Counted from the first letter of the whole stretch, positions 9,408 through 30,737 are shown. The stretch is DNA of 63,982 nucleotides, filler included, from Asterionella formosa (GCA_002256025.1; 4 parts of 4 records of this genome joined end to end with filler, not necessarily neighbours in it), one strand, 5' to 3'. Made by a program: numbers and translations. Notes: generated from the letters alone by a model not told the origin.

Positions 9408-9769
9408 AAAAAAGGAAAGTATGTTAATAGCCTATTTGTTCTACCCTATTACTATAGGCAAGTCTTTCATTGCGCTATCTGCTGAAAAGACCTGTGATTC
9501 CCTAAATTTGTTAGCGTAGGTGAGTCCCCAACCACCTTTCGCGAAAAGTGATTGTCTTAGCCGCAGCTTTAGAGGAAAATCCGACCGCCTAGGAAGGCGA
9601 CACAACAAGCTGCTTGTAGGGCGACAACCCACTATTTCGTGCACACCAGGCAAGACTGTGCAGGACGGTAAGGAGTGTGGGAGGAGTGGAACCCAAGAAT
9701 TGCTTCTCAAGAAATTGCGGGAATTGAACCTCACAAGGCAACGTGATATACCACCACTAAGCCATTCCC
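9408..9769 (-). mobile_element. tRNA-derived SINE (family 1), older copy
   Basis: Homologous over its length to 52799-53124. Head GGGAATGGCTTAGTGG...GGTTCAATTCC. Degenerate TSD beginning TCACTGTA at 9392 and 9770. Confidence 0.75.
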
Positions 9770-10728
9770 TCACTGTACTAGCTGCTGGTGCAGTGTATAG
9801 CAATTTTTATGTTGTGTACAAAATACTTATAGAATCAGTAATACTTTGTAAAAAATACTGGTAATACTTTGTAATGATAGAGGGAATGCAATCAAGGACT
9901 TGTTGTCAAGACTCATGTAGTTGTTGCCCCACCCTGCACTCATGTTTCCGAATGATCTCCTTATTAAATCACCATATGTATCAGTTAGTAGTACTAGCTA
10001 CTAGGTTGCTTAATAGAAAATAAAGCAACTTAGCCATTCCTTCATTGTGTTATTGAAACCGAAGGTAGGAATTTGCTGGGCATAGCATTTCTTCACTTCT
10101 TGACATTGTATAGATATAATGTTTTCATGACTATTATGTATCGTTTTTGACTATCAGCTAGCTAGTTCAAATCACTGAGAGCAAGGGCAAAGGAAAGCGA
10201 ACAATGATATGGGGAGATATTTACTTAATTCAGTAATGATGAGGCAACAAAATCTATCTATTTTGATGATAAAATAAAAATTTAATTTATATCATTTACT
10301 AGTACCACTTCTTAAAAAATCTTGATGCCACTATTTCGAGCAAGCCGTCATGATCTCGTCATCTCGTCCACGACAAACTACCGGTAGACCCCCATCCCCC
10401 ATAGCCACTTCTACATACTGCATGGTGAATGATAGCTTACCTTTGTTTACGTAGAGAATATTGGCCATCCGTCAGCCATCAAACCACACGCACCACCACC
10501 GCAGCATCATGCAGGTCCGATTCGATCTATTATATTACCCCCTGGTACCTACAGGTAACGTATTGATGCGCACAACGCACTTCAACGAGGACATCAATCA
10601 TCTACCGGTAGTCTGCCTCACACGAAAGTTGTCGTTTAGATCTACTTCTCCAGGAATTAGATCAGTTTCTTGTTGACCTCGTCTGCGAATAGAGAGAAGG
10701 CGAAATAGCATTGCAGGAGCGTAATGCC

Positions 10729-12588
10729 ATGGTAAAGCGATTGAAAATAATAGTGGAAGGTTGCTCCAGGCGGAATGCTGCCAATACATGTCAGCGACCG
10801 AAAACACCTCATGTACATCGACATGTATTTGAAGAATGCCAGAAGAGGTCGCGCGTGTCTTCAAAAATACAAATACCGAATGGTCTCCTTCTGATGGGAT
10901 CAGCATTGCTAGCTAGTATGCTACTGCTGAATCCAGGTGTTGCTGTCAGCGCATTTAGGGCAACAAGTACATCCTGTCGTATTCAATCAAGCTTGACAGA
11001 ACCGCAAACATCATGCAGCTCCTCATCGACATCGAGACTAAAACATAGCGGCGATTTAAAACAGCGACGTATAGCGGTATTATATTTGGCTGATGAACTG
11101 TCAGAAGAAGATCCTCCCGATGCTCATGAAGAAATAGAAAAACGACGAAGGAAAAGAGTCGTCGAAGGCATTTCCAACACCACTTCAATCGAAAGCGAGC
11201 TCTTGTCAAGAATTACGAAACTGGAGGCGCTACTGTCGAGACATGAAGTCGATCTTCTGCGGCTCCGACGTGAAGTTGATGTTCTGGGTGAAGCAGCAAT
11301 TGCTTTTGCACGTTTGACCCAACTACTACAGAAAGCTGGTTTAGCCGATGCCTTCGACCAAGTAGAAGGTGAAGGAAAACGGATTGTTCCAATAAGTGCA
11401 GAAAATTTGGTTAAGACTGAGAACGATAAGTCTAAGTCATCGAAGGAGCTCATCCCTGGTAAAACCTTTGAATATTTCGACGACAATGAAATCTTCGGGA
11501 CTGCCCCTGCTTCGGTAATTGATGCTGCAGATGCTGCAGGTGCCTCGATTTTGGCTTGTGTTCTGGGAGGCAAACAGCGCATGCTAGTCGACGTTCGCGA
11601 TGCGGAACTTAGTCGTGATCCAGAAATGCTTGTCCAGTTTGTTGAGCTTGCAATTCTTCCTGTTGCAGCAGGCTTGGAAGGATTGCCCAAAAAGACGCGC
11701 AATCGAGTCAAGATTGTCTTTCCCACTGTGTCGCAGCTTCTTCAGCATCGCCGTTCAATGTCCTTAGTGGCTCCAGATGTTGTAGCACTCAGTACACTTG
11801 GATTCGACCCTGTGGAAAAGCAGGATAACCTCGTTGTGATCTTGGCACCTGCGCCGGATGACGAGGAAGGGATGGATGCCATGAACGAGTTGTTAGCGCC
11901 TACTGACCCGACTGCCAAACAGCTGCGACAGCCGGTTGTAGTGATCAATCATCATATGGTGCCACTATCCGGACCAGCCAAGGATTTTGAAGTTGCTTAT
12001 CATCTTCGTTTGCTTAGTGTCCAGTATATGAGTGGGGATAGTGCTGGGGACGCACCGGAGTATCTAAAAGAACTAGCCGAGCAGAGAGCAGGCAATGAGT
12101 TCAATTTGACAACATCCTCTCAAATTTTGAGCAAAGAAGAAGACGATGCAGAGTTGGAAGCTGCTATGAAGCATGCACATGAGATTGGCATGAATCATGG
12201 AATCACCCGCGCTATGGTTATTCGAGCATATCCAAAGCCATGGCATGTATTTGTTGATACTTCACCTGATACTGACGCGGACTTTGAAGTGGCTGCTACA
12301 TTCGATGAAGAACCAACTCAAGATGATGTAAATTTTGCGATTGTCGAGTGTTTGGAGGGAAGCGAAACAGAAGACGAACTTGTTGCTTTCCAGATGCAGC
12401 AAGCATTGGAAGCTGGCCAGCTGGACAAAGTCTCGGAAATGATGGGAATTGGTGCTGGATTCGAGGTGGACGAAATGGAAGTGCAGTCCTTGGAACAAGG
12501 GGAGGGGGGGAACAGTGGTGATTCTAAGCTAGAAGACGATGAGAATTTCTATGACGACTTCGATCTATATCCGGAAGACAGCTGCTGA
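10729..12588 (+). CDS. DUF1995-like (LPA3-related) protein, probably plastid-targeted
   Basis: Long intact ORF with motifs QRMLVDV, VKIVFP, VVILAP, PVVVIN, FEVAYHLR, IRAYP.PWHVFV and F..EP typical of DUF1995. The hydrophobic signal ends in VSAF, followed by a Ser-rich transit peptide. Alternative start ATG 10894. Confidence 0.7.
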   Translation: MVKRLKIIVEGCSRRNAANTCQRPKTPHVHRHVFEECQKRSRVSSKIQIPNGLLLMGSALLASMLLLNPGVAVSAFRATSTSCRIQSSLTEPQTSCSSSSTSRLKHSGDLKQRRIAVLYLADELSEEDPPDAHEEIEKRRRKRVVEGISNTTSIESELLSRITKLEALLSRHEVDLLRLRREVDVLGEAAIAFARLTQLLQKAGLADAFDQVEGEGKRIVPISAENLVKTENDKSKSSKELIPGKTFEYFDDNEIFGTAPASVIDAADAAGASILACVLGGKQRMLVDVRDAELSRDPEMLVQFVELAILPVAAGLEGLPKKTRNRVKIVFPTVSQLLQHRRSMSLVAPDVVALSTLGFDPVEKQDNLVVILAPAPDDEEGMDAMNELLAPTDPTAKQLRQPVVVINHHMVPLSGPAKDFEVAYHLRLLSVQYMSGDSAGDAPEYLKELAEQRAGNEFNLTTSSQILSKEEDDAELEAAMKHAHEIGMNHGITRAMVIRAYPKPWHVFVDTSPDTDADFEVAATFDEEPTQDDVNFAIVECLEGSETEDELVAFQMQQALEAGQLDKVSEMMGIGAGFEVDEMEVQSLEQGEGGNSGDSKLEDDENFYDDFDLYPEDSC

Positions 12589-12636: not shown

Positions 12637-14358
12637 TTATTTGTTCATCGTTTGTATTGACAATAGTCTTTGCTCCAATTCTTCGTTTCGCTTATCTGTC
12701 TCGGCGAGCTTGGCTTGAAGCATATTTGTTTTTTGAACAGCAGCACATAGCCCCTCGATCATTTTCTTTTCCAGGTCTATTACTGTGGCTTGTGTTGCTT
12801 CCTTGTCGGCATGAAGTACCTGGTTTTCCATTTGAATTTTCCTTGACATTTCAAAGACATCTCGGAATGGAGTGATTCGTTGTTCGTAAGCTCGCCTTAT
12901 GTCGCTGAGTCGGTTTTCGAGTGCTTGCTTTTCTAGCATTAGTGTCTTGAGTCGCTCTTGTAGTGCGTTATTATCTTTGCAGCCAGGACAAATAACTGAA
13001 TGATGGAAGTTGTTTTGAACTTTTGGGTCTGACGATGCCACAATCTCCGAGATTGGCTCCAAAAGTGAAACGCCATTCAGCTTAATTGTCTCCTCCAACA
13101 GAAATGCGCTCGCGCCGGAAGACTCGTCGTCATCTGCCAAGACGAAAGCCTTGGAGCTTTTCGTTGGTGAAATTCTATTGAATGCACTTCGCACGGAAGG
13201 AGCACCTAAAAAAGTGGGGCCAGGAGCCTCCATGCTTGAGATTTCATCTAGATTCTCCACATTAATAGGTGATGGCGTGTCAAGGGGTGATGGTTTGGGT
13301 AGAAGCAAGTACAGAGAATCTGCTCGCCGTTTCCGTGTCGAATGTTTCTGGGCAATTATTTCGGGCGAATCCTCCTCCCATTCGAATCGACTACTATTGC
13401 ATCTAGGAGACTTACTGCATTCTTTCTGCCTTTCATCCTGTTTCGTAGTGAGGTCCGAAATAACTTCCTTGTTGACGTTGCCATTCGCCACGTCTTCAGG
13501 CTCCACTTCATTGAGAAATATATCCAATGTCGCCACTGCCTCGTTGAAGAATTCATCTTCGAATTGACTGAAATTTTCTTCGATATCATCTGGAGGTAAG
13601 CTGATGTATTCGCCAATTGTCAACACTTCTCGATAGGGAGACTCAGCAGATGGCAGCAAGGGAACGGTGCTTGAATGCATGGAGAGAGGCGAGACAGGGT
13701 CTTCTCGTTTAATTTCAATATGTGATCCCACCATCAATTCGTTTGCTGGATACCTTTCTTCGTCATCAACTTCTTCTTGATTCAGGCACTCATGCAGCAC
13801 ATTGTCAGATTTATCACTCGAGTGTGCATCTTGAACCGATGCTGCCGACAGTCTCATTGGTTTTCCCAGCGATTGTCGTCCTCCCTTAGAAGTTGCGAGT
13901 TTTCCAAGAGATGGTTGAACTCTAGGCGAAGTTTTGAAAATGGGTTTTCTTCTACTGCGAGTTGAAACAAAGGTTGTTTTGGTGGTAGCAAGGTTTGTGA
14001 TTGAAGTGCTACTTAGCGAGGAAAATGGTATGCGTGATGTTTCAAAGCTCGTTCTACTCGTCGTCTCCACTCCACGTCGTGGGGTTTGATGCCGAAGTGG
14101 CTGACCAGCAGATCTCGTGGATGGACTGAGGTTGGAGGTGCTTAGATGAGGAGTTTGCTTGATGCTTCCGTAGCTGGTTGTTACACTCAAGCGAGGAGCT
14201 GATGATGGTTTTGGTGTCTTTTGCTGATTCGACGCAAGGCTTGGTCTGGATGAACTAGCTGTACTGCCTTGTTTCTTCTTGTTCTTTTTTTCCTCTCTCC
14301 AAATGGCAAGCTTCTCTTCTCGCGAGAGACATACCGGTACTTCTGCCGTGGTCGTCAT
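12637..14358 (-). CDS. Hypothetical Ser/Thr-rich protein with C-terminal coiled coil
   Basis: 573-aa uninterrupted ORF. It has a basic N-terminal helix (REEKLAIWREEKK) and a heptad-rich C-terminus. It converges on the previous gene with a 48-bp gap. Confidence 0.75.
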   Translation of the reverse strand: MTTTAEVPVCLSREEKLAIWREEKKNKKKQGSTASSSRPSLASNQQKTPKPSSAPRLSVTTSYGSIKQTPHLSTSNLSPSTRSAGQPLRHQTPRRGVETTSRTSFETSRIPFSSLSSTSITNLATTKTTFVSTRSRRKPIFKTSPRVQPSLGKLATSKGGRQSLGKPMRLSAASVQDAHSSDKSDNVLHECLNQEEVDDEERYPANELMVGSHIEIKREDPVSPLSMHSSTVPLLPSAESPYREVLTIGEYISLPPDDIEENFSQFEDEFFNEAVATLDIFLNEVEPEDVANGNVNKEVISDLTTKQDERQKECSKSPRCNSSRFEWEEDSPEIIAQKHSTRKRRADSLYLLLPKPSPLDTPSPINVENLDEISSMEAPGPTFLGAPSVRSAFNRISPTKSSKAFVLADDDESSGASAFLLEETIKLNGVSLLEPISEIVASSDPKVQNNFHHSVICPGCKDNNALQERLKTLMLEKQALENRLSDIRRAYEQRITPFRDVFEMSRKIQMENQVLHADKEATQATVIDLEKKMIEGLCAAVQKTNMLQAKLAETDKRNEELEQRLLSIQTMNK

Positions 14359-14809
14359 TTCAGTTGTCGACTTTTCTTAGTTTTTGTGAGAGGGTAGATG
14401 ATTACCGGTATCAGGTTCCAGTACCCACTGGTAGCGGGAGGCTACTGGTAGACTATACATAGTTGCAGGCACTCCTACCAAGTACCGGTAACAGGTACCT
14501 TACTAAGCACCAGTACTCATGTATATATTTGCTTGTACATTGCTTTGTGTGGGGCATGCAGGGCGGCGCAAAGCAAGATTTGAAACCTCGGTCGGATGCG
14601 CCACTCACTACCTGGTACCAAGTACTAATGTGCAACCTACCGATACTGTCACTCACCGGCCGGCCAGCCCGCCAACGGTTGCTCCCTGTTGGTTCTAATT
14701 CCCGCTCATGAACTGGCATTCGCACTCTCTAGTATGTGCCAACGAGGAATGTAAGATAAACACCGGTAATAAATATATGTATACAGTGTGGCTGGCTGCA
14801 ATTTCTGGG

Positions 14810-16024
14810 TCAACGAGGTGGACCCCGTAGGCCTAGTACCAGCAAAAACCCTGATTCTACTGAATATAATATTTTGTGCCTAATGGAAGGCATCCTTTGT
14901 CCGATTTTTTTAATCCCTTTCAATGTTCTTGACCATTGGAAGGATGGCTGTAGTTTCAATAACTCCTTATAGGACCACTTAGAAACAGCTCGAATAGTAG
15001 AATCATCATCACAGATGATTGTAGAGTAGATAACATTGTTTTTCATTACTGCATCAATCATCATTTCTACACCAGCATCTGGTTCCATTGCTTTCGAACT
15101 ACCAGTTACATGATTCTTGGGACAAACATGTTCCTTGATTGGTTTCTTGTACCATATAGCCCTGTCACACACATTACAGACCTTAGATTTCACTCTGTAG
15201 TCTAGTATCTTTTTCGTGTAGCCGCCAATACAAAAAGCATGTCCACTTACAGAGTTGTACCTATTCCCGCTGGAACGCTGCTGCCAGCCCATATCGTAAC
15301 TAACAGTGAGTCGAGGCATATTCAGTACAGACAAGCGATCCGTAGTACCAGTCAGACTGTTCCACCACTGAAAATCACGTCCTTTGTCACCCCAGTCTCC
15401 TCGTTCATGCACATTGAGTGTCAGATATATTTCTTCCTGACACGCCTCTTTCATTGCAAGAGCGGTTGCAGTAACTTCAGCGTTTCCTACCAGTTCCTCC
15501 ACTGCACCAAAGTTACCTTGCGTAGACCAAAATCCAAAGGTAAGTGGAAGATTCATTGCGGAGCAGATGATATCTGCATCTGCTGGTCCCATTCCGGCTT
15601 CGTGACAACCCAAAATAAACTGTTTGTTGATAGAAAAGTGTTTTGCTTCTATTGCGTTATTTCTTATCTCATCATTCCTGTCTCCATTGCTGTTGCTTCT
15701 TGCAGGTTTGAGTTTAGAAATCAGTTTCTGACAGGTCAAACAAGAGACTGTGAATTCACTTGCCAAGCCGTAATTTTTGGTAGAGACAACAATCAACGGT
15801 TGTTTCATTGCTGAAATCGAAAAGTCAAACACATCCTGCTCCAGAAATGATTCACATTGCTGTTCAATGGACAGCTTTTGTTGTCTATTTGATGTAAAGT
15901 AAGTTACAAAGTCACGAAGCGATTGTTTGCAATATTCTTTTGCAAATTTATTAACACAACTTTTGCAATACATATCTTCCTGCAGAAATTTCGACAATGT
16001 ATTATAGTCGATTATATGATTCAT
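14810..16024 (-). mobile_element. Mutator-like transposase, C-terminally truncated
   Basis: SYDMGWQQRSSG.RYNS.SGH...IG..TKKILD...KSK.C..C...H.C.KNH..GSSKAME...IICDDDS is the Mutator-like transposase motif string. Similarity fades near the ORF end. Confidence 0.8.
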
Positions 16025-16069: not shown

Positions 16070-16169
16070 NNNNNNNNNNNNNNNNNNNNNNNNNNNNNNN
16101 NNNNNNNNNNNNNTTAATTAATTAANNNNNNNNNNNNNNNNNNNNNNNNNNNNNNNNNNNNNNNNNNNN
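16070..16169. other. Artificial contig spacer
   Basis: 44 N + TTAATTAATTAA (stops in all six frames) + 44 N. Confidence 0.97.
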
Positions 16170-16359
16170 CCTGGTCTGTTCATTAAAACGACTGCCCTAA
16201 CGCAACAAAGAATAAGTAATAATAAGAAAGGATACGAAATGTGGCATTCCTACAATCCCAGCTCATAAATAAAGAAAGCAATACTGTATACGACAGGTTG
16301 GTACGGAGTATATTACACGAACATATCGGTAGATCCTGCCTTGCAATTAACGTTCTTGG

Positions 16360-16710
16360 CTACCTGGTACTGGTACCTGCAATAGGTACGGTACCATCAG
16401 ATAAATTCAATGCACGCATGTACAAAAGTATCAGGTACCTGGTACCTGGTACCAGGTACCACAGGTTGCGTATAGTAGATACCCAGGTACCTGGTACTGG
16501 TACCTCGTACTTACAACGGACAGTACCTGGTGCTACCGGTATACCAGGATACTGGTAACAGCACCTGGTACCTCTGGTACCTGGTACCACAAATTACTGC
16601 TACCTGGTACCTGGTACCTTTTACGAAATACAGGTAGGTCGTATGTAGTGCTACCGAGACTTTGTATACCTGTTAGTGCCTGGTACCAGGTTACCAGGTA
16701 CCTGGACCGT
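16360..16710. repeat. Dense GGTACC / TACCWGGTA palindrome array
   Basis: About 15 GGTACC by manual count in ~350 bp, built from 7-mers (GGTACCT/GGTACCA) in both orientations. Confidence 0.9.
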
Positions 16711-17699
16711 ACTCCAGTTGACTCATCCTCAAAAGCAATGGAGTACAAATGTGTCCCGTTCCCAAAATCCGGGTTCAAATCTGGATAAAATCTCCGGGTT
16801 CTGCGGTAGTCGAGTTGCGCTTTGCTGTGGGAGGGACTTCGGGTGGGTGATTTAGACTATGGTTCTGGTATGTACTACATACATAAGTATAAATTGCGAA
16901 AAGCTTGGCAATGCTTTAGACTACTTCCCTGAATTGTATTCAAAGAATTGTGCTCTTCACCCCTGCACTAATTTACTGATGATAATCTTGCATGGTTGCT
17001 ATCTTCCTCCCTTGCCTTACTAGCTGCCGATTCTTGGTTGTTCGATTCAACTCTAAAGCTACTAGAACTTAATATTCACATTGTTCACATTGTTGCTACA
17101 TTAACATCTCTGCTTTGACTGCTTTGATTCTTTGATTCATGTCGCACAGTTTGATACTATAGTCCAGTGTTTGCCTGGTATAACTCCATTGCATCCATCC
17201 TTGTCTGTAATTTAAAAAGTTGGGAAAGCTATCATAATCATTTCGGTAAACAAAGAAGGTACATGACGTTTCCGCAGGCAACATAGGGGATAATAAACTT
17301 ATCCCATGATCCATAACAACAAAATGCTCCATGTATAGTAGGCATGTGGCACTTTAATGGTGAGTTGCATTTGCTTCAGTTTTACCAGACACTTTGACAT
17401 TTACATAGGTAAGATATGAACAAGTCACATGCAATGAATTCTACACACAAGTGTACCACAGGACACTATCCAGAATCCGTTCGTATGCCATACTTGATGT
17501 CTAAATTGGTCAGTGCATTACAAAATATTTAACAATGCATGATGTATGATCATACATAAATTTGTATGGGTGACCCAGTATATATACTAGCAGCAGTACT
17601 CAATGCACCATGATGTGACCGGTAGCAGTAACCAGGTACCAAGGTGCAGTACCACACTGCTGTGAACCTATGGGTGTATGTGTAGGTGCACGGAATTGC

Positions 17700-17940
17700 G
17701 AATTCTCCTTCACTAAGGGAAAACCTTTCATCTATGAAAAAGTTTAATACAACGAATATTAATTTGATAAGTAATATGAATAGTTGGTTGAAAATTGATT
17801 GTGCCATTGGCATGCACTTGAATAACAGTATGAGGACCTCGTCCACGATCATCCAAGGTAGTTGGATTACCCGATAGGATAAGAATCTCGTCGCCAACTC
17901 TGTAATCACAAGACCGATAATGAAAATCAGCACATTTTTA
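17700..17940 (-). mobile_element. Gypsy integrase C-terminal fragment with polypurine tract
   Basis: Minus strand reads DYRVGDEILIL...GPHTVIQVHANGTI...INIRCIKLF, then GTGAAGGAGAA. Paralogous to 31589-31830. Confidence 0.7.
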
Positions 17941-20411
17941 ATGTGTCATCACATAGCAGATTTGTCTGTTCAGCATTCTGCTGGGTTTTAGGCACAATGG
18001 CCACTACGGTAGCTGACCAGCAGAATAGTTCGTGAGCACTAAACTTACCTAAGCAGATTTATAAAAGTCGGCAAGTATGGCCCTCTTCACAGTACCCTAA
18101 CCAGACATCATTGTATAGAGTAGTGCTACATGCTCAGCTATAGATGGATTGTTTCAGATTTGTAAACAATGAGAAATTAATTGCAAATAGTGTTATTCTT
18201 CTACACATAGAGGTTCAAATCAGTTTTTGACTGGTATTAGCAAGAAGTTGCGGTAATTTCTTTGCCTCTTCGTTTGAACATTCCAAAACCGTCAAATATT
18301 CCTGTATGGTATAAACCAGTGTGCATATAATTTCAACTTTGCATAATTGAACTTTCCAGGTTATAATCCCGCCATTCACTTACTCTTTTTAATAATAAGC
18401 ATATATCTCGGTAGTATGTAGGCAGTGCTGCTGCTGAAACCGTCCTCATTCACAATATCTGTGTTGGACACAACCACTCCTCCCTCCAGCCACCTAATCC
18501 ACCTCCGCTTTTCTTACCTCCCAACTTTCTCCACTAGACCTGTTGATCCCTAAAGAGCAGCCAAGTGCCGCTTCCCTGTTGAGATATCGCATTTTCCCTA
18601 CTATGCACACTTCTCACATCATTTTCTTTAAACAAATTTCTCTTCCTCCTCCATTTCCTTTCCCCTCCATACCTTCTACTTCCAAAATTCTCCCTCATTC
18701 AGAACCTGGAAAAACCCAGACCCTGTGGTAATTCCAAGCAAGATAATGTTCTCATTTGCTGCCATCCACATTCTGCCATCAGGCGCAAAAGTCACTTCAA
18801 CCTCAGAACAAGTCAATTAGCTACATACCTCTTTTCCAGTCATACAATGCTTCTCCCCTAAGACTCTTCTATTGTTTTCTTACCAGAAATTCAACAAGCT
18901 GCTTTGCACTGCCCAGCTTCCTCCATTCCTTCAGCTAATTATTCATTTTGGCTGCAGCATTTCATTCATCTGAATATTGATAGTACCTTCTTAATATCAT
19001 CATTCTTCTCTTCTCACATCCAAGATATTCTTTCATCTCACTCTTATTCTTTCTTTCTTCATTTGCAAATAGAATAGTATATTTGAATGATCAGCAATTG
19101 TTCAATCAATTGAAAGTCATTGCAAGCTTTTAATCGAAGTTCAAGGCACATCAATGCACATGAGTCTTTATATTCTTTACAAACAATGTCTTTGATTACC
19201 ACTGGATCATGCCATGTTGATAGCACTACTGCTGTAGTGCTGGATTGAATAAACCAGAGTCAGCCAATGTCATGACATGGTAGTAAGCCAACATGTCCAT
19301 GTTCCAACAAGCTCATCTTGAAAACTTTTGCATCATCAAAATCAACATCACTGCCTCTGATAGACATCCTTTAACACTTCCAATGAAATTGGTATTGGTT
19401 TGATATGCCCATTTGGAACTGGCACAGCACTTACATTCAAATCCCTCTCCAGCAATTTCTGAATGACATTTTGTGTCAACATGACTTCATCTCCAAGCTT
19501 GGTCCCAATGTGCTCATCATTCCTTTTCTCTTTCAAGAAGACATTACATATTCTTGACATGATGTGTCTCAAACTTGGATCAAGGTTGACAATTTCATAT
19601 GCACCTTGTTGTCTAGTTAAAGTTTAATAAGGCAAGTTTTGCCATCAATCAACCCACCCCACAAGACTTGCACAAACCCTTCGCCTTGCCTTCCCACCAG
19701 CCTTCCTTGACTTTTGTAACTTCTCTTGTAACTTCAATTAAGGAATGGAACCGGAGAAAATTGTAGGAATCAAAATTGCCCCAGAGAAATTTGAGAATTG
19801 CCACATCTATTTTCATTTGTATAAAAACAAAATAAGAATAAGATGACTACCTCCTAATGATATTAGATTGCGACTCAAGGTTGTAGAATTCCATTGAGGC
19901 ATCATGGTACAAAGTACACTGATACATCTTTACTGCTGTGTGCGACCATAAGTACATCATAGTTGCGTGGAATACACTTGACAGTGTAACTGAAATTCAA
20001 AGAACAGGAACAACTGTATCAAAGGATCGATGAAAAAAATGAATTATAATATTTTGTGTGTTGTGTATAGAGCTGTAACTGCCAAGGAATTGACTGCTGT
20101 TCTGGCATTTTTGTAACTCTGAAATCCTGTAGACTTAGTCCACTACTGTTCTGGCCCCAAAATTTCGATCAGGGTCAGTGCTCTCAATCCAGTTGCATAT
20201 CATACGGCGACGATGATAGAACGATAACCGTCTACTGTATCAACTAGATGGAGTAAGACAAGTAAATATCATGCAATGTGGGAAGACTCTATTCAGCTTA
20301 GTAGCAGTGTGCGATATTAAATGGCTTTGAGATTGGTATTGCGGCTGGCATATTTGAGCTTTTTCTCGCCTCCGAGGTCTAGATGAACATGAACTAATGA
20401 AGATTGATTCT

Positions 20412-22191
20412 TTACTTGCCATAGCCCTTGAGGAAGTTCTTAACATCATCACTGACCTCTTCCTTGGGCAAGACCCTTCCTCCTGCCTCACCCCCCTTGA
20501 CAACACCAACACCAGATCCTGTTGCAGCTGATGGCGCTGGCACTGGAGCAGGTGCGGGCTTGCCTTTGGCAACTGATGCCGCCTTCTTAGCGTCCGCAGC
20601 GACTTGTGCCTCCGCTTTTGCCGCTTCAGCGGCCTTAGCAGCGGCTTCTTGCTCAGCCTTCTTTTCCGCTGCTTCTGCCGCTTTTTTGATTTTTTCGGCT
20701 TTAATAGCAGCTTCTTTAGCCTGTGCTTCCTTCTCCTCGGCGGCGAGCTTATCAGCAATTGCGTCGGCGGCCTTGCTATCTGCAATAGCGGCAGCATCCT
20801 TTGAAGCGGTATTTGTTTCGGCCTTCTTGTCAGCTACTTTAGCCACAGCGGATTCCTTCGCAGAGGCATTTTCCTTAGCCTTGGCTTCTGCAGCAGCAGC
20901 CTTTTCGGCTGCTTCCTTGGCTTTGGCCTCCTTCTCGGCCCTAACAGCTGCTTCCTTGGCATTGGCTGCCTTCACTTCAGCTAAAAGGGAAAAAAGAAGT
21001 TGGTGAGTTAGTTAGAAAAGTGCTTACATTCCTTGTTGTCCTCGTCTCCGTCAATACGTACCGGCCATTTTATCTGCTTCCTTCTTTGCGGCAAGGGCCT
21101 TGTCAGCAGCCTCCTTTTCCGCTGCCTTCTCTGCGGCAGCAGCCTTTGCAGCAGCAGCACTATCAGTCTTGGTGGGGGTGGGGGCAACGGAATCGGTATC
21201 GAGATTGTATCCACTGCGATTAATCTTGGCCTTCACAACCTTTTTGGGATTAATTTTGGTAGGTGAAGAAGTGATATCGACCTTCGCCGCCTTTGCAGCT
21301 TTGACAGGACGCGATACAGACGGAGCGCTAGAGGAAGGGAGGGAAATGGAAGGTCCCTCAACACCAGTGAAAGGAGATGCAACGATCAAAGCCACAGTTG
21401 CGGCAGCAAATCCAAGGAATCCCTGTAGAAGAAAGCAATAGGTGAGATTCTTAAAACCCAAAGAAGATTCCCTATACACTGAACGAACTCAATCTGGTTC
21501 TTACTGCAGCTTTTGTGACTCCGCTACCATCAACCGCACTTTGGATCTTCTTCTTAGCCTGAGCAGCCTCAAACGCCGCGATTTCCTTCTGTATGACTTC
21601 CCGACGGGCGGCTGTCTTGGCCAAGATATCACGCCCAGCAACGAGGGCCACCAGGGGTGCCAACACCAAAGGCGCTCCACCAACAAAAACTCCAAGGCCA
21701 GCGTTTGGCTCGGCTTCGACAGGTGCCTTTGGTGCCTTGGGAGTCTTTGGTCGATCAACCTTTGCAACGGGCTTTGGTTTTTCAAATTTGATCACGCTAG
21801 GGGCAGCCTTCTTTGGTGTTTCAGGGATGCCAGTTTCAAGACTGTAGCCGCTCTTTTTCGAGCCCTTGACTTCAACGGCTGGAACTTGTGGCTTTGGAGG
21901 CGGCTTCACCACGACGGGGGCTTCCTTGACGACCTCGGCCTTGGGAGCAGGCTTTGGCTTTTCAGCCTTAGGGGTAGGAGCGGGCTTTGGTTTGGGTGCA
22001 GGTTTCGCCTTCTCAGCCTTTACTGGCTCCGGTGGGCTCAGAAGCTTCGACTCCAAGTCCGCCAAGGAGAAAAGAGGTGTTTTCGACTGTCTCGTCGCGA
22101 AAGGGGCAACAACATTGGCGCGGTTGGCCACAGGCACAAAAGCCGACGTTGAGGCGACAACGGAGAGGATGGCGAAGGTAGAGAATCTCAT
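20412..22191 (-). CDS. Plastid-targeted Ala/Lys/Pro-rich membrane protein; exons 22191-21505, 21422-21062, 20980-20412 (~538 aa)
   Basis: Signal peptide MRFSTFAILSVVASTSAF-VP (ASAF-type cleavage motif). Two GT-AG introns (82 and 81 bp) keep the frame. Hydrophobic segments GVFVGGAPLVLAPLVALVAG and FLGFAAATVALIVASPF. Confidence 0.85.
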
Positions 22192-23501
22192 CGTCAAGGC
22201 AGATTACTCAGAAGTAGCGATCGCGGTGGCCGGTAGTTTACTAGTTGTCTTCTTATATTGATGTAACCATCACGGAAGGTGGGAAGCGAAGCCTACGAGG
22301 ATCTACAAACCAAAACTACCTATCATACCGGTATGATGCACATAATGTATAGGAATCACGGCGTCTCTGCTTGGGGCTGGCGCGTCGTGGTGTGGGTTTT
22401 GGGCCTGATTGAACGGGGAGTCGTTGTTGAACACCATACCGTATCTTTCGACAATCTCCCGTCCGGCCGTCGCTCACACTGACGTATGTGTTTCTCCATC
22501 ATCATCAGTCGCTCGTTTCGTATGCAGAGCGAACGCGAGGCTCGAGCTTGCTACTGGCACTGGTACTTACCCTGTTACCAGTCGTCTATGTACCAGGTAC
22601 AACGAATAGTAAGTGTCGGTAGTCTACCTGGTACAAGGTACCATTACAGGGTACCGGTAGTTTAGTCCATGGACATACCGGTACCAGGTAGTAGATTCGA
22701 TTCATGCATTATCCTCCTGTCTTTCTTTTATGTAAAAGCAACTCTACTTTAAGCAAAATGATAGCAAATGGCACAATAAGCAAAACAGATTGGTCTCAAT
22801 ATTTCAGGCCAAATCAGATTAAAGCTAAATATATATAGGAACAACAAGCCGGTCGGGTTGGGTTATTAAACGGATATCAAGAAGAAACACATTTATCAAT
22901 TTGGAATTGGAATCAGAATTGCCGGAACAACGACGTCGTACGTGGAACTAGATATAGCAAAATTAACCCAACTTGCTGGTACTATGTAGCACTACCGGTT
23001 AGTCCAGAATATATTTTGCTGTATTTATATGCCGGTATATGTATAGCAATAATGAATATAAGACACTGAAATAAGAAAGTGCAACCTCTGTTCTGTCCAC
23101 AATCCCCTTGACTTTGCCAGTCACCTTATCTCTCATGAATTGGTACTTGGTACCGGCATACCGTTGCCTCACCATGGCAAACGAGTGGTGCACAGGACGG
23201 AGAGATTAAAGTCTACCGAAAGCGAGTACGCAGTGAAGTGGCACACGACCCTAAAACAACCGGACAAAAGCATACACAATGAATAGAGTTATATCAACGG
23301 GTCACCTTCGTTCCCTGGCTTTCCGAAATCAGCACGCTAAAGATGTTCAATGGCGACTGCTCCATATTCGATCTGCGTATATCAGGGTAATCCCGCGGAT
23401 GTCCTGATGTCGATGTTGTCCCGGCAAATTCGTAGTCATCCATCGGAAATACTCCGCCTTTTTGCAAATCACAACGATGAGCACAATTCTCACTTTTCAT
23501 C

Positions 23502-25604
23502 ATGAGCAGATACGAGAGTACGAAAATGAGCAAGGCTTCTCGCAACAAGACGACAAAGCGCCAGGAGGAGAAATTGCAAGATGTCGACGTGGATGATCGA
23601 TCTGCTGCTTCCTGGAAGCTGCCCGAAGCCGTCTCAGTCACCGGCGACGACGTGGAACCTGGACCGCCTTTGGTTTCGTCGTCAAGCAGATCAGTGTCGG
23701 CTCGGACTTCGATTGTGAGAAAGGACACAAGGTCGAATCAAAAGGCTCTTACCGAGCACTCTGGAAGTACCCATCGCCGCCGTTTCATTATCTGGGGAAG
23801 CATAGGAGCGGCCTTGCTTGCAGCAATTGTTCTCGCGCTTTTGTTTCTTGTGGGACCTCTCGGAAGCACGAGTAGCTCGTCACCTAGTGATCCAAAGGTT
23901 GAAAATGACTCTAATTTTACCATGACGCCCCGCGAAGCAGCCTTGATTAGCATCATGGCAGTCGTCTCTCCCATTGGACTGAACGACGAAGGATCCGCTC
24001 AGTATTTGGCAAAAGAGTGGCTCTTTCATTTTGATTTGCTCCAGCTCACTCCGTCTGCCACTACCAGCAATGACACGATTATTCAGAGATATGTTCTGGC
24101 CGTGTTTTACTATGCAACAAACGGTCCGAAGTCATGGGCAGCAAATAACTGGCTCGCAGGTGGTGAATGTGTGAATTTGTATTGGACTGGAATAAGCTGT
24201 AACGATTACCACCAAGTTCGTGCTATTGCATTTGGTAGGTTTCTGTGTTGTTCTTTTCTGAAATAAGCTGTTGCAACGAAACGAAGGCTAAACATTTCAT
24301 TTTACGCAGACAATGCCGGACTTGAAGGTTATATCCCTGAGGAGCTTGGAGCCTTGTCCATGTTGGAAAACTTAATCATCAAGAATCATCCCAAGATTGC
24401 TGGTCATATTCCAACCACCTTGGGAAAACTTGCTGTGCTTGAACAACTTGGATTATACGAAAATGCATTGACTGGCGGTATTCCATATGAATTGTACAGC
24501 GCTACCAAACTAAACTACATCAATTTGCAGGGTAATCAATTGCAAGGAGGTCTCACTGTTCACATTGAGAAATTGCAAAACCTCGAGAAACTTATTCTTT
24601 TCAACAACAGGTTCAATGGAGGAGTCCCAATTAGGCAAATGGCGAAAACCGGATTGCGCTTGTTGGGTCTTGGCAACAATTGTTTTGAAGGGACAATTCC
24701 AAAACAAATCTCCAACCTACTTAATTTGGAATACCTCTATCTTAATAATAACAACTTCACGGGAACATTGACTCCGAACTATGGAAGGTTGACAAATTTG
24801 GGTAAGCAACGAAATTGTGTGGATTGAAGCAGCGTGGTTTCATCGTTTGCTAACTTCATCATCACAGTGTCAATGAGTCTTGATAATAACGCTTTTAGTG
24901 GAAACATCCCCAGCGAAATTGGAGGAGCAACTTCACTTGCTTTCTTTTCGATGCAGAAAAATCAGGCGACCGGAACTATTCCAAGCCAGATAAATCAACT
25001 CAAAAATCTTCATACGCTGAATTTGGCAACTAACTTTCTCAATGGAACGATTCCTTCCACAGGAGACATGAATTCTCTCGTTAATCTCTATCTCTACCAA
25101 AACCAGTTGACTGGAACAATGCCTTCGATGCTTGGCGATATGAAGTCTTTGGAGATTATCTTTTTGAGTTCCAATAAGTTATCCGGATCCATCACGCCTA
25201 CGCTTAGTAACGCAAGTGCAACCCTTAGGGGCCTTTACTTGTCCGACAACGGCTTAGATGGAACAATTCCTGCAACACTGTGTGCGCTAAGCACTTTACA
25301 CTCCCTATTTTTGGACACGAACTATTTGACGGGCTCAATGCCGTCGTGTCTCGGAACCTTGACTTTACTTCAAAAATTGTATGTTTTCCATAACAAACTG
25401 TCTGGGGAAGTTCCCACATCAATTCAGGAACTTCGATCATTGAATGGGCTGGGACTAGAGAACAACAATTTTGTTGGAAGTGTTCCGTTGGGCATTTGCC
25501 GAATTAGCGCTCTGAGCGATCTCTGGTCTGACTGTGGAGGATCGAATCCCGAGATTGCTTGCACATGCTGCACGACATGTTGCCCATCGTCTTCTTGCCA
25601 ATAA
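23502..25604 (+). CDS. Membrane-anchored leucine-rich repeat protein; exons 23502-24234, 24310-24801, 24868-25604 (~653 aa)
   Basis: N-terminal TM helix, QRYVLAVFYYAT..W...C..W.G..C cap, many LxxLxLxxNxLxGxIP repeats and a C-terminal DC...C.CCT.C cap. GT-AG introns join in phase. Confidence 0.92.
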
Positions 25605-26033
25605 AGCCAGTGCCAATTAGTTTCATGGGTTATGGTCTATGTATGAAATGGCTGTTAAGAAAACGTAAATATTATGTGATATATATTTATTTATTCTCAG
25701 TTATGCTAATGAAACACAAATTGGATTATGGGCTTGTAGAGCGGCTGAAGAAAAAAGGAGTATTTATGACTTGAAGCGCATTTGATAGTTCCGATAAGCA
25801 AAGATTGTAAATGTACGACAATTTTCACCTCAACACAAATTATTGAAAGTACTTTGACCCACCAGGAATCTGCCCTAGGGCTTGCAGGCGCCGAAATAAA
25901 TAGTATGGGAACTGAAATAAAAGTAGCGTTCATTCTCTAATTTACCAAATGCATGCATCTATTCATCATTCCCTTCCTGGAGCCTTGGTGAGTTTCCTTC
26001 TGGTTTACCCACACAGTAAGTACAATTCATTCA

Positions 26034-26270
26034 TCATCCTTCTTCTAACATCCAAAGAATCTCGTTTTCATCGTCGACAGGCTTCATCCAGGAGCTGAGT
26101 CTTCCTACATTGGGATTGGATTCTTTCTCACTGTTGGTGCAGGGGCTATTTGGTGGTGTTCCCACATCGTGGTCCTTGGGAGGTAGAATAGTAGCTCCTT
26201 GCATGGGCCGCTTATCGAACTGACTCTGGACCCCTTGCCTAAGGGATATGAGATATTCATTCCAAGTCAT
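26034..26270 (-). CDS. Small hypothetical protein (78 aa)
   Basis: ATG-initiated ORF inside a gene island, with natural-looking composition (TPPNSP, Trp-containing tail). No recognisable family. Confidence 0.4.
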   Translation of the reverse strand: MTWNEYLISLRQGVQSQFDKRPMQGATILPPKDHDVGTPPNSPCTNSEKESNPNVGRLSSWMKPVDDENEILWMLEEG

Positions 26271-27126
26271 AACTGTCTATTTGTGTATGAAGGGATGCTT
26301 CGCTTTTGTCGTTTTGATGTCTGGAATTACTGATTTTATGATGACAAGATGAGAAAGTATCGATGACACGGCGTCGACGCGATGATGTTTCTGTGAAGGC
26401 CCCTTCTTTGCCATCAAGATACATGTCGTCAGGGTTCTCATTTTTGATGGGTTCGTTCTACATGTCACCTATTTATTATATGGACCGGTATGTACGAAAA
26501 AAAATGATACGTAACGACCTGCCGTTCATGTACTCCGTAGCTAACAAAATAGCAATACATACAGTATGATAAGAAGCAATTACACCAAAAATCGTTTCTA
26601 CAATGTATAAGCATTTACCATTATTATTCTAGTATTGTATATGTTTAAAAAATGCAATTACACATACATTGAGTATACTTATAACAAATAGACATGCCGG
26701 AGTGAGGCAGTATTAATCACAGCTCATATGCACTAATAGCTAATACTGTACTGATAGTGAGGATTCCAGGATGAAAAATTATATACTGCACTGACATCAA
26801 GGCATTTTGTCCTTGATGTCGAATTTTGCGAAGTCGAAGTAGAAGTTTTGCTAGTGACATAGACTATAGTCAAAGTACACCGTTCGAAAAATGCTTGCGG
26901 TTAATGTATACATACACTATACATCATCATTACCTGTCGTCACATGAATTTGTCTGTGTTTCTTGCTCATATTACTCTGAATCTCGTGCTCACCAATGAG
27001 CACATTCATATACCAGGTATTCAGAAACCCACGATCATGAAAAACATTTCAGGATCCTGGTGGCAGAGTTTGGCGGAAGGAAGGCTTCGAATGAATATCC
27101 ATTCTTTCGCAACACAAAATACTATA

Positions 27127-27321
27127 TCATTTACGACTTACCGTGATAGGCGCATTCCACATGTTGTTCAGGATCGTGTTGTCGATGAGAATTTTGCTTT
27201 TCGGCGAGGCAGTAATCATCGACATGGTTCGTCGATCGGTTCCATTGTTGCTCGCAGGAGGTACGATAATAGTTCCGACCATAGGACGGCTTCTGGCGAG
27301 TTGACGGATCGTGCTCAACAT
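27127..27321 (-). CDS. Small hypothetical protein (64 aa) with mitochondrial-presequence-like N-terminus
   Basis: MLSTIRQLARSRPMVG...RRTMSM is Arg/Ser-rich and acid-poor. An A-rich leader precedes it, and it is divergent from the EGF gene. Confidence 0.45.
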   Translation of the reverse strand: MLSTIRQLARSRPMVGTIIVPPASNNGTDRRTMSMITASPKSKILIDNTILNNMWNAPITVSRK

Positions 27322-27784
27322 CCTCTTTGATATCTTTTTGCTTGGCTTGCTTGCTGGTATGTTTGTTCTTTGAAATGTGAGACAAAAGTGAAAGCAACGT
27401 GCTGAAAGTGAGCGATAGGAAAATGTCAGGGAAAATGGGAACTCATTTCTCAGCGGACGGCCGAGGTACGTACCGATGCATACGAAAAAATTTAAAAATA
27501 ATTTTCTTTTACGTATGATGATCATCAGGCATACCAGTGCCGGTACCCGGTAGTCTCTTTCGTATCATATGTATCCAGAGTATACCGGTAGACTACCTGG
27601 TACCCTGGTACTGGTACCGGGAGCTCTGTAATATGGTGTCCGTATGTATCATGACATCATGAATGGTGATGTTCCATCACCGAAATACCGGTATCATGGG
27701 CCACAGCCAAACAGATACCGTACATGTACCGGTACAGGCATTCGCCTCCACAATGAAACTCCAAGGCAAAAGCCATTTCACAAA

Positions 27785-28659
27785 ATGATTCCTCCAGCTT
27801 TCGTCTTCCTCTCCGTGCTGCTACTCACCTCAGTATTGTGCGAGGTTTGTGATTTAGCATGCCGCAATTCAGGAGAGTGCAAATTCGGCAGCGCAGATTA
27901 CTCTTTTGAATCAGACACTTTTGACGATGACCAACTTCCTTTTGCTGAGCACATTGACGGAAAGTATTGCAAATGTATTTCTGGGTGGACTGGGGTGCAA
28001 TGTGAAATTAAGTTCGTGATATGCGGCGAAAACAAGCATACGTGCTTCAATGGAGCACCTTGTCAGGCGGACGCTAGTGGGCTCTTTCATTGTGAATGCG
28101 ACGCGGCAAAATCTGACTTGTCTAGTGTGTATGCTGGTCAGTTTTGCGAGCACGTTGCTACTGTGTTTTGCACCACAAATGACCCAACTACTGGACAACC
28201 CGCCAAGCACTCATTTTGCACTAACGGAGGACGCTGCAAGGAATTTGTCAACTATGACGTAGAGTAAGTTGAAAGGGAAGGAGAATGAACATTTTGCCTT
28301 GTCCAGTTGAGGTGCGAGTACCGGTACTCACATTAATGGAATTTTCCAGACATCAAGGATGTGACTGTGGAGAAACTTTCGAGGGTTCCCACTGCCAGTT
28401 TTACAAAAAATCAAGTGAGGTTTCAGCTAATACTGGTCAAGCCGCTGTTGCTTTGATTGGAATCACCGTTGGTACAATTTTTCTAGCTGTTGCTTCTGCA
28501 TTTTTGTATCGAAAACTGAAGGGAAATCAAATGAACAAATCCACAAGATTGAGCTTACGAGCCTTTGACGACGCTTGCCAGGATAGCATTCGTGGCCTTG
28601 ATGGCGATGCGGATGCACTGACAACTCCTACTGCAACGTTTGAAGGGGAGATGACTTGA
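27785..28659 (+). CDS. EGF-like domain type I membrane protein; exons 27785-28263, 28350-28659 (~262 aa)
   Basis: Signal peptide, EGF motifs (C.N.G.C, CKCISGWTGVQC, CFNGAPC, CTNGGRC, CDC...FEGSHC), a TM helix and a cytoplasmic tail. The 86-bp GT-AG intron is in phase. Confidence 0.9.
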
Positions 28660-29391
28660 ATTAACACGACTTCCCTGAAAAAAACTGATCCTGTCTTGTA
28701 GAAAGTTGAGATTTTCAATTTTTCTTTGCGTTGCGTGTACATATCATACACAAGGCTGCATACAATGGATCTGCATCAAGTCATGCTTTCGTGTTGGGTT
28801 TCTTGCCGAGCTTTCATCGATTACCGTACTATCGCTGACTTAATCATTACATTTCGCCAAGTCAGAAGCTGAAAAGTGGAGAATGAGAGTTTCCTAGTGC
28901 TGACTTGGAATTACAGAGGGAAGGATTTGTAGGCCATCAGCAAGGTGTTGATGTCGTGAATATCTTCATTACTTGAATCTCTTAAAGTGATCGAATATCG
29001 GACTTTGTAATCCAATTTTTTATGGCTAATTATTCCTGTTCTCTCTGCTTGTTGAGACATAATGTGAACTGCGAGCAAAGGCTAGTGTTCAGGTCTTGTG
29101 CAACTTTTGTACATGTCCGATCATACAACTTACTTTCGAGGTTGATTTGCGGCGTACAAGATGTCATGCTGAAGAGACTCCCTGCAGGAGGCTAGGTTGA
29201 ACAATAATCATGGTTTGCTATGGTCGAGGTAGATTACCCGCGAAAACGTCTTCCAAACGGCAGAAGAATATCTCTTGTGGACTAGCGGTAAGCTAACTTG
29301 AGAGGGCGACAACAATATCAATCCCAATGGTTTAAGTAAGTATTACGTTACGAACACTTGATGATCGCAAATTGTTGTGTTTTTGTATGAT

Positions 29392-30382
29392 TCAATAGTA
29401 TGGGTGGTAGGCACCACCCCCACCACCGCCATAGCCTCCTCCACGACCACCGCGACCGCCACCTCTAAATCCTCCACGACGAGCTCCTCTTCCGCCTCTA
29501 AATCCACCTCCTACTCTACCTGATGCTCCCCCACCTCTGCCACCTCTAAATCCACCCCTACCCCTGCCTCTCCCGCCACCAGGGTCCTGGGCATAATAAA
29601 AGTTTGGATCATTGACACGCTTGTGTGTCACCTTGATTACTCTGTCCTTGAAAGTTGATCCGTCTAGCTTGACTGCATTTTCTACAGCGTCTTCGGTCTG
29701 AGTAATAAGAATGGAATAAAAGGCAAATGATTTGTTTTGGATTTCCTTTCATTGGCTTTTGCTGACCGCGGAGTTGCATATAGGTAATCAGACACCAAAA
29801 ACAAACAAGCATAAATACGCACTTACCTCAAATTCAATGTACGCAAATCCTACAAGAATGATCCGAGTGCGGTGAATCAGAGTCAGCACTTACTCAGTCA
29901 CACTACGTGATTCCACAAGTCCACAATTGGTAGCTGTGAAACAGGGAACATGTCAACACGTACCTTTGGGTCTTCCCGTCATTTTATCACACACAATAGT
30001 CACTCGCTCCACTGTCCCACATGCTCCAAAGTGAGCCAATAACTCTTCCGGAGTAGCATTGTAATCGACTTGACCGACGTAAATGGAACACCTGTGGAAA
30101 GGCTGGTTTAGTACGGGCGATCGTAACGGCAGCCAAACATGTTTGGACATTGCCACCTTCTTGTCTTGCTCACCCGTCCCTCTTCGCTATTTCCTCTTTT
30201 GATTCCTCTCCCTTTTTTGCCGTTGCAGCAGTATTCCCTCCACCCTTTTCAAGTGCTTCCGTCTCCTTCGTGATTCGCGCAGCTTCGGCTTCCATCCGTT
30301 CAATTTCCGCCTGCAGCTTCTCGAGGTCTTCGTCCTCCTCTTCCTCCGGCTCTTCTTCTTTCTTGGATTCTACTTCACTCAT
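29392..30382 (-). CDS. PABPN1: Nuclear polyadenylate-binding protein 2; exons 30382-30174, 30091-29964, 29849-29827, 29697-29392 (~221 aa)
   Basis: Acidic coiled-coil N-terminus, RRM ([38 protein letters not shown]), KVT.KR.N and an RGG tail ending YHPYY. All three introns are GT-AG and in phase. Confidence 0.93.
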
Positions 30383-30737
30383 CGTGTCGATTATTGCCTT
30401 TCCGGTATGTATGGACTGCGTTTTGTTGGTAGACAGTCTAATACAGGTAAAATGACTGTAATGAAAAAGCGAAATGTGATGAATTCCAATTCATCTCATC
30501 GCTGCAATGATTATCCCTGTGCGTCATCAGTATCAGCATGCAGGCAGAGGCTAGACAATCTGCAAGCTGCGAGTGGTAAATGAGAATTTAGCTCGTTTTA
30601 CCGTATAGTACGAACCGTCTTCTACCGGGACTTTTCACATCCAACCTTGTTTGTAATTCAAACGTTTGTAGAAGAAAGGGCAATAGAAAATCATTGTAAA
30701 AAGAATCCTAACCAGTCTTCTATTTCATACCTCTCAG

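Follow-up and report, generated by a model that had tools for sequence, protein, structure and literature searches.

Putative excision footprints of TA-targeting transposons as an abundant palindrome in Asterionella formosa DNA

The palindrome TACCGGTA and its one-base-longer relatives TACC(A/T)GGTA (hereafter TACCWGGTA) are strikingly abundant in a stretch of DNA from the diatom Asterionella formosa. Described here is an analysis of their number, their surroundings, and the differences between related copies, which shows that the octamer arises by insertion or deletion at TA dinucleotides and that the added bases match the ends of a terminal inverted repeat (TIR) element present in the same stretch. 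On this basis we propose, with a probability of roughly 0.55, that both words are Tc1-style excision footprints of transposons that target TA and have CC(A)...(T)GG ends, with arrays of them growing at GGTACC hot spots, helped by slippage.

Excision scars are a textbook subject, and those known are rare sequence curiosities. In the Tc1 scar of Caenorhabditis elegans, TA-CA-TG-TA, a duplicated TA brackets the two to three outermost bases from either end of the transposon, which lengthens the site by 6-7 bp, and TACCGGTA has the same construction with CC...GG ends. Sleeping Beauty, Minos, and Mos1 are Tc1/mariner elements with 6-7-bp scars of this construction as well. Unlike these Tc1-type scars, the word considered here, known from sequence alone, is the top over-represented 8-mer of its DNA, occurs about once per 3 kb, and forms arrays.

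The stretch that was analyzed, referred to as the window, is 63,982 bases in length with a GC content of ∼41%. It is composed of four pieces of ∼16 kb joined by N44-TTAATTAATTAA-N44 linkers, the N runs of which lie at 16070-16169, 32217-32316, and 48357-48456, and adjacency across these linkers is meaningless. All counts, shuffles, and comparisons of paralogs were made within these 64 kb, which hold few paralog pairs. The alignment of metagenome contigs (runs X2, X3, X7, and X11, with partial contig cover in X7 and X11) spans 16170-32216, and the contig indels described below are those among the matches listed, there being at least 26 further ones. Most metagenome runs that contain this DNA bear freshwater, lake, or algae labels.

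Results

Enrichment of the palindrome

TACCGGTA occurs 22 times in the window, against a mean of 0.37 across 100 dinucleotide-preserving shuffles, and TACCWGGTA occurs 18 times (13 with a central T and five with an A), against a shuffle mean of 0.31. The largest count in any shuffle was 2, and none of the 100 matched either observed total. When compared with an order-2 Markov background, TACCGGTA is the top enriched 8-mer among words seen at least six times (22 versus 0.47). It is also the commonest palindromic 8-mer of the window, and together with TACCWGGTA it is by far the commonest among all TA-N4-TA and TA-N5-TA words. Indeed, 22 of the 28 copies of ACCGGT lie inside it. A preliminary description, made from the sequence alone, had taken these palindromes to be highly iterated across the genome. 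Their enrichment is confirmed for the window by the k-mer count, and genome-wide occurrence is plausible. The excess of TACCGGTA, ∼60-fold, is uneven among the four pieces, which carry in order 13, 22, 1, and 4 copies of the two words combined.

When the 22 octamers are compared together with 12 bases to their left and right (44 flanks), no consensus emerges outside the motif, which indicates that the 8-mer itself is the unit, set in unrelated sequence. Several sites sit within dispersed repeats, and no site of either word was found in confirmed coding sequence of the window. The octamers at positions 87 and 2746 were examined as a related pair and rejected as such, the shared TACCGGTAGT..TGTAT being within chance (∼1.3 such pairs expected by estimate).

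Origin as an indel at TA

Four comparisons bear on how the motif arises: one within a repeat of ∼275 bp resembling a miniature inverted-repeat transposable element (copies A, B, and C), two at indels within a second repeat pair (D, 61400-63160; E, 2790-1780 on the minus strand), and one with contigs of run X3. The relevant positions are given in Table 1. Copies A and B are 94.1% identical, A and C 92.8%, and B and C 90.7%. The sequence ...AT-TA-CCTACTAC of copies B and C corresponds to ...AT-TACCGGTA-CCTACTAC in copy A, where the ∼12-15 bases just left of the motif are also replaced. The simplest reading of the three sequences, which provide an unrooted polarity, is that a 6-bp insertion likely took place in copy A. 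The replaced bases resemble the break repair that follows excision in rice (PMC4423477). Copy B itself lies between sequences that adjoin one another at 53505-53923 and looks like an insertion between them, both junctions showing an overlap of a few bases.

In the D/E pair, the word at 2140-2147 of copy E is a motif-type 6-bp indel followed by a T>C change, and a second indel of 6 bp and another of 4 bp likewise stand opposite a plain TA in copy D. In the metagenomes, run X3 is without exactly six bases at 22650-22657 (depth 154.4 of 154.4), such that the TACCGGTA at 22652-22659 becomes TA, and runs X2 and X7 retain the long form. Indels of the TA-x-TA type make up three of the ∼47 paralog indels listed, with the A/B/C event a fourth.

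In each of the four comparisons, a short insertion at a TA has TA on both sides. The CCGG added in the D/E pair has no counterpart beside the site, and the other two sites possessed no more than CC or GG beforehand, so that these are not clean tandem duplications. By way of contrast, an ordinary slippage indel is found at 19334 in X3, where ATCAAA is duplicated. The motif originates, in short, as an indel at TA whose added bases are foreign to the site, and the contention of the preliminary description that it would arise by insertion with a duplicated TA rather than by substitution holds for both the paralog and the X3 comparisons.

The word at the 4-bp indel in copy E, TAGCTA, is itself over-represented (31 versus ∼12 under an order-2 model). 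It may represent a second scar type, from a family with G...C ends.

The TIR element and its family

The element at 52562-54249 is non-autonomous, with no long open reading frame (ORF) in its interior, which contains pieces of other repeats. Its ends and surroundings read GGTA-CCACCTAAAAACTGAGAGTCAAC ... GTTGACTCTCAGTTTTTAGATGG-TACC, and the right end, when reverse-complemented, is CCATCTAAAAACTGAGAGTCAAC. The family end can be written as CCAYCTAAAAACTGAGAGTCAAC. The arms are 23-27 nt in length, the 27-nt arms being 96% complementary when GGTACC is included, and subterminal ACTGAGAGTCAA repeats are positioned at 52601 and 54030. The preliminary description of this element as having TA/CCA...TGG/TA ends in a GGTACC site is therefore correct. 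Since the element starts with CCA and ends with TGG, its terminal bases are those inserted at the scars, CC+GG and CC(A/T)GG, as had also been claimed. Neither the TACCTGTA indel nor the TAGCTA indel can be matched to this element.

A solo end of a related subfamily near position 39300 (Table 1) displays the same layout of subterminal repeats, with the repeat ∼25 nt further in. No partner end for it was found in the window. A scan of metagenomes with the 19-nt end of the element returned five loci (L001-L005), one of which, L001, is a true copy of the element. Three others (L002, L004, and L005) were discarded as chance matches in unrelated sequence, and they hold no TACCGGTA in 18.8 kb. The fifth, L003 (1-1632, labelled marine metagenome), contains ∼330 bases of the element end between bacterial-looking ORFs, with the outer junction located precisely at a KpnI site, GGTACC. 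No match to the 19-nt pattern was found in genome contigs. TA adjoins all five family termini and GGTACC four of the five. The exception, the solo end, favors TA as the target.

A search of the window for further inverted-repeat pairs of the TA/CC...GG/TA form yielded only the known element and self-matches of the arrays, and a generic scan of the window for TA-flanked TIRs added nothing relevant. The window also contains two related hairpins, near-perfect and 72-100 bp in length (30738-30809 and 45946-46044), that have arms in common (AATCTTGGC.GCATT.CAG.CTTAA). They were considered as relatives of the element and rejected, not being CC...GG-ended. Contigs from X2, X3, and X7 have a joint that skips 30763-31062, starting inside the first hairpin. 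Within the element, a tRNA-like or SINE-like (short interspersed nuclear element) segment at 52841-53125 is ∼70% identical to 9465-9770. ARAGORN called no tRNA there.

The match between the added bases and this family bears on another possibility, namely that a transposon-free process of break repair or insertion at TA adds CCGG plus TA, for example through a nuclease with a fixed filler or through palindromic additions of the hairpin type. Such a process would account for the indels, which are real. Additions of the hairpin type would suit the two of four cases in which half of the palindrome (GG before or CC after the TA) existed beforehand, and the enrichment of TAGCTA, seen as an indel as well, points the same way. 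With the motif removed, however, most sites are without GG before or CC after the TA (12 of 22 have G before or C after), and thus the constant CCGG was not copied from the flank. Moreover, a matching TIR family is at hand. We know of no transposon-free process that adds CCGG and TA, although no search for one was made, and we regard this explanation as improbable.

Decay of the motif at its central CpG

Copies D and E also differ by a transition at the central CpG of an octamer (Table 1). Among the 12 one-mismatch classes of TACCGGTA, enrichment is greatest for the CpG transitions, TACTGGTA/TACCAGTA (14 versus 1.3-3.5), an excess that neutral decay would yield, and the CpG observed/expected ratio of the window is 0.70. 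The enriched TACTGGTA is best read as decayed TACCGGTA. In the flank of the second copy of the element (L001, 60-100), GCTACCGGTACA is followed 23 bases on by GCTACCAGTACA, which places the motif beside its CpG-decayed form.

The preliminary description had offered the alternative that methylation or repair at CCGG/CCWGG creates the motif, which would then arise by substitution. Consistent with it are the depletion of CpG and the paralog pair that differs by a CpG transition within the motif. That transition, however, destroys the motif rather than making it, and the four informative comparisons in which the motif arises are all indels. As a creator of the motif, methylation thus finds no support, its probability being very small indeed, and decay at CpG explains the enriched TACTGGTA/TACCAGTA.

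The array at 16360-16710

The dense clustering of the motifs that had been described, with its maximum at 16360-16710, is borne out by the counts in Table 1. In these 351 bases there are 47 TA dinucleotides, with ∼22 expected from the 3,993 in the window. Of the 46 TA-to-TA intervals, 17 are units of 4-7 nt with C first and G last: CCTGG (seven), CTGG (three), CCAGG (two), and CCGG, CAGG, CCCAGG, CCTCTGG, and CCTCG (one each). Tandem Repeats Finder detected only short period-7 runs in the array, of 2-4.9 copies. A contig of run X2 over 16170-16987 differs by 35 gap letters, 28 inserted and seven deleted as determined from the contig coordinates, both of which are multiples of 7. In run X3, ∼30 contigs break off with loose ends to the left of 16434-16460 and ∼30 to its right, and the summed depth in the bin 16170-16704 is ∼70 times the single-copy level, which together indicate that such arrays occur at many places in those samples.

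These data raise the question as to whether the array is simply a heptanucleotide micro- or minisatellite, (GGTACCT)n, in a state of decay and expanding by slippage, with the single TACCGGTA copies being unrelated to it. The period-7 runs, the X2 allele, and the bias in orientation toward CCTGG over CCAGG are what such a repeat would show. In addition, the same 20-mer is present in at least 110 contigs labelled bacterial in the search of genome contigs (median GC 0.61, a few being of low GC; 11 TACCGGTA in 851 kb), so that repeats of this kind arise on their own; it had no match in viral contigs. Several of these (GGTACCT)n contigs (L006-L115) come from single metagenome-assembled genomes of Acidimicrobiia, Gemmatimonadaceae, and Planctomycetota, and the bacterial sequence is a recurrent heptanucleotide repeat unrelated to the diatom. 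Where the satellite explanation fails is with the 22 isolated TACCGGTA in unique flanks and the TA-to-TACCGGTA indels. Length differences between adjacent units of the array (CTGG, CCGG, CCTGG, CCCAGG, and CCTCTGG) are, furthermore, no less frequent than sequence differences, a better fit to a variety of junctions than to slippage with later point mutation. Slippage in steps of 7 bp is probably a contributor to the growth of the arrays; as their origin it has a low probability.

Clusters near genes

Two of the smaller clusters (Table 1) lie close to genes. That at 14332-14617 is upstream of a minus-strand ORF starting at 14358. At 27583-27734, two sites fall within an ORF, 27644-28267, whose signal peptide begins at residue 48, about base 27785. 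Since these sites precede the signal peptide, they belong to the promoter or 5' untranslated region (UTR). The TACCGGTA at 28319 is situated between two EGF-like coding stretches and reads as part of an intron. None of the sites at 27583-27734 is altered in the contigs of X3 and X2 that extend across this cluster. The gene itself (27785-28659) encodes a secreted, membrane-anchored product with cysteine patterns of the EGF type, a signal peptide, and a transmembrane stretch, and has an apparent intron near 28265-28330.

Such positions lead to the main rival explanation, according to which the motif is a transcription-factor site kept in promoters by selection and its likeness to a transposon scar is coincidental. 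The octamer at 6493 lies 24 bp before an ATG at 6517, the sites at 27583-27727 precede the start near 27785, and those at 14332-14483 are at the start of the minus-strand ORF. In oomycetes, TACCGGTA is motif M94 of Phytophthora infestans promoters, listed next to M93, TACATGTA (PMC3597505). An inverted-repeat motif-9 is present upstream of 1,284 Phytophthora genes (Seidl et al., PMC3520976), and ATACCGGTAT, found upstream of 206 Plasmopara halstedii genes, has been equated with motif-9, GTACCGGTA (PMC10031896). The preliminary description did not consider TACCGGTA as a published oomycete promoter motif. Set against a factor site is the fact that six identical bases were inserted at TA in settings with no relation to one another, including repeats (52231, 2140, and 62684) and a likely intron (28319). 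Decayed variants are abundant, and dense arrays with up to three abutting units are unlike factor sites. The available text of the oomycete papers (PMC3597505 and PMC3520976) reports neither a motif test nor a binding factor. A factor site is, in any case, compatible with a transposon origin followed by co-option. Taken on its own, this explanation is unlikely.

Other features of the window

A gene for a DUF1995 protein lies at 10711-12588, its best named relatives being from diatoms at ∼60% identity and other relatives reaching 78-82%, which together with the labels of the metagenome runs points to a freshwater diatom as the source. On the minus strand at 14810-16024 is an ORF for a Mutator-like transposase (Pfam PF20700, E = 7.8e-43). 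Remnants of a long terminal repeat retrotransposon, with weak gag, integrase, and SH3-like matches, extend over 54798-61292. A very high-copy repeat occupies 31150-32216, with related pieces at 17704-17933, 49219-49405, and elsewhere in the window, and the summed contig depth of X3 at 31150-31684 is ∼800 times the single-copy level. The fourth piece is bounded by a 127-base inverted repeat (48457-48583 and 63856-63982) that is 100% identical, which may have been produced by the assembly or may mark the termini of a large element. Searches of the window for tRNAs and against Rfam gave no match.

Table 1 Positions of motifs, repeats, and elements in the window
Feature	Position	Strand	Remarks
Repeat of ∼275 bp, copy A	52190-52473		Resembles a miniature inverted-repeat transposable element
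Repeat of ∼275 bp, copy B	45316-45596	minus	
Repeat of ∼275 bp, copy C	57947-58223		
TACCGGTA in copy A	52231-52238		Plain TA in copies B (∼45545-45558, minus) and C (∼57986-57999)
TACCGGCA plus extra ATT in copy E	2140-2147	minus	TA in copy D (62743-62753)
TACCTGTA in copy E	2021-2028	minus	TA in copy D (62853-62863); 6-bp indel
TAGCTA in copy E	2302		TA in copy D (62596-62604); 4-bp GCTA indel
TACCGGTA in copy D	62684-62691		TACCAGTA in copy E (plus-strand TACTGGTA at 2207); transition at central CpG
Non-autonomous TIR element	52562-54249	plus	1,688 bp; TA-flanked within GGTACC
Solo end, related subfamily	39281-39300	minus	...CCACTG TA/GCACCTAAAAACTGAGAGTCATC; TA, no GGTACC
Densest cluster	16360-16710		Holds half of the TACCWGGTA (9 of 18) and one third of the GGTACC (15 of 45) of the window
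Cluster	14332-14617		TACCGGTA at 14332, 14403, and 14483; TACTGGTA at 14443; TACCTGGTA at 14609
Intergenic cluster	22591-22690		TACCAGGTA, TACCTGGTA, TACCGGTA (two), TACCAGGTA
Cluster	27583-27734		Promoter or 5' UTR of EGF-like secreted-protein gene
Single TACCGGTA	87, 2746, 4432, 5804, 6493, 10379, 10603, 16534, 22326, 32984, 49937		Unique contexts; no flank consensus

Discussion

A possible excision mechanism

A scheme that would link the observations is as follows. Insertion of an element with CC(A)...(T)GG ends would duplicate the TA, and its excision would leave the outermost two to three bases of the element behind on either flank. Cuts staggered by 2 bases, like those of Tc1, would give TA-CC+GG-TA, a gain of 6 bp. 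A 3-base stagger with a one-base overlap, in which an A/A mismatch is resolved, would give TACCAGGTA or TACCTGGTA, that is, TA-CC(A/T)GG-TA, a gain of 7 bp. The scars would persist in non-coding DNA, decaying fastest at the central CpG to TACTGGTA/TACCAGTA. If the family prefers TA inside GGTACC, each excision there would turn one GGTACC into two, so that hot spots such as 16360-16710 would become GGTACC-rich arrays, to which 7-bp slippage would add copies or from which it would remove them. The presence of GGTACC at four of the five termini fits re-insertion into earlier footprints. By this scheme the excising family would be of the Tc1 type, and its autonomous partner may reside elsewhere in the genome.

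Several observations weigh against the excision-footprint explanation. The window contains one complete CC...GG element together with one solo end, and the latter starts with GC. A search with Pfam of 67 ORFs of the window (13 with 200 or more amino acids and 54 others from the 71 stop-to-stop frames with 110 or more, which together take in all of the 71 but four antisense overlaps) detected no Tc1/mariner-type DD(E/D) transposase, the sole transposase being the Mutator-like protein. Among the contigs over 16170-32216, no locus was seen at which one strain has the element and another strain the scar. The polarity of the change is provided by a single comparison, that of A, B, and C, and it is unrooted. 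Although L003 holds a true fragment of the element, it lies in a low-coverage contig of chimeric appearance, the flank of which is untrustworthy. With a nested palindrome at four termini, a duplication of TA cannot be distinguished from one of GTAC, GGTACC, or a longer arm, and the GGTACC found there could belong to the inverted repeat instead of being the target. GGTACCGGTACC is absent from the window, which means that the isolated TACCGGTA are not in a GG..CC context. The GGTACC-seeking family of the window cannot alone explain them, and a family or mode with a broader use of TA is required. There is also a rough upstream tendency, in that about half of the sites precede likely start codons by no more than a few hundred bases. 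Within the arrays, the preponderance of CCTGG over CCAGG (13 versus 5) is expected of slippage, and the homogeneous short 7-bp runs and the X2 allele, with 28 bases in and seven out, are what slippage gives. Lastly, the scars are far more uniform than the excisions in rice, where eight of 94 were classed as "perfect" (PMC4423477).

The proposal in the preliminary description that the palindromes are accumulated footprints consequently stands in part: the indels, the matching ends, and the location of four of five termini in GGTACC speak for it, whereas the single complete element, the lack of a transposase among the ORFs scanned, and the probable contribution of slippage do not.

Relationship to known systems

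The study of rice treats excision, that of Mariner-type elements with TA targets included, as a process that steadily generates small indels by which close relatives differ (Roffler and Wicker 2015, PMC4423477). There, 86 of 94 excisions were accompanied by deletions or filler and eight were clean, whereas one or two fixed scars dominate in the A. formosa window.

The oomycete palindromes are the closest parallel. The same 8-mer is enriched upstream of genes in another stramenopile lineage, and its sister motif, TACATGTA, is the Tc1 scar, given as taCATGta in a work cited in PMC3520976. TACATGTA occurs upstream of 12,070 Phytophthora genes, and motif-9 is threefold enriched at RXLR effector genes (Seidl et al., PMC3520976). 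The difference is that the motif has been read there as a factor-binding site, with a footprint origin considered for TACATGTA only. That origin, by Tc1, was weighed and set aside for reasons of abundance and conservation (PMC3520976), and the word "transpos" does not appear in the main text, as available, of the paper describing M93 and M94 (PMC3597505).

The preliminary description also drew an analogy to HIP1 (GCGATCGC) of cyanobacteria, likewise an 8-bp palindrome that is spread through genomes far above expectation (PMC4390886). The analogy holds for appearance and for nothing beyond it. HIP1 is bacterial, is found largely in genes, is linked to methyltransferases, and is not known to arise by insertion (PMC4390886).

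Literature searches found no paper on TACCGGTA or GGTACC arrays in diatoms and nothing on such a motif under footprints combined with diatoms or mariner. Among the matches listed for the TACCGGTA string, those returned were primers or barcodes. Excision scars and, in rice, their genome-wide contribution to indels are already known (PMC4423477). What would be new is a single scar type as the most over-represented word, its arrays at a preferred palindromic target, and the coincidence with a "promoter motif" of a sister lineage.

Implications

A further suggestion, advanced tentatively and more doubtful than the footprint origin itself, is that a eukaryotic highly iterated palindrome may be the product of a self-reinforcing loop in which scars breed GGTACC targets, arrays grow, and single scars seed non-coding sites. 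The oomycete TACCGGTA and TACATGTA would then also be scars, some of them perhaps co-opted, and their reading as primary transcription-factor sites would be overturned.

If the footprint explanation is true, transposon excision would be a leading rather than an occasional source of small insertions in diatom non-coding DNA. The ratio of intact to CpG-decayed scars would provide a simple sequence clock of past cut-and-paste activity, and a class of hypervariable loci would be explained. It would also reopen the question, settled in the available text of PMC3520976 by argument rather than by test, as to whether the TA-NNNN-TA palindromes near oomycete genes are factor sites or scars. For motif discovery in general, it would serve as a warning that mutational input can mimic regulatory enrichment.

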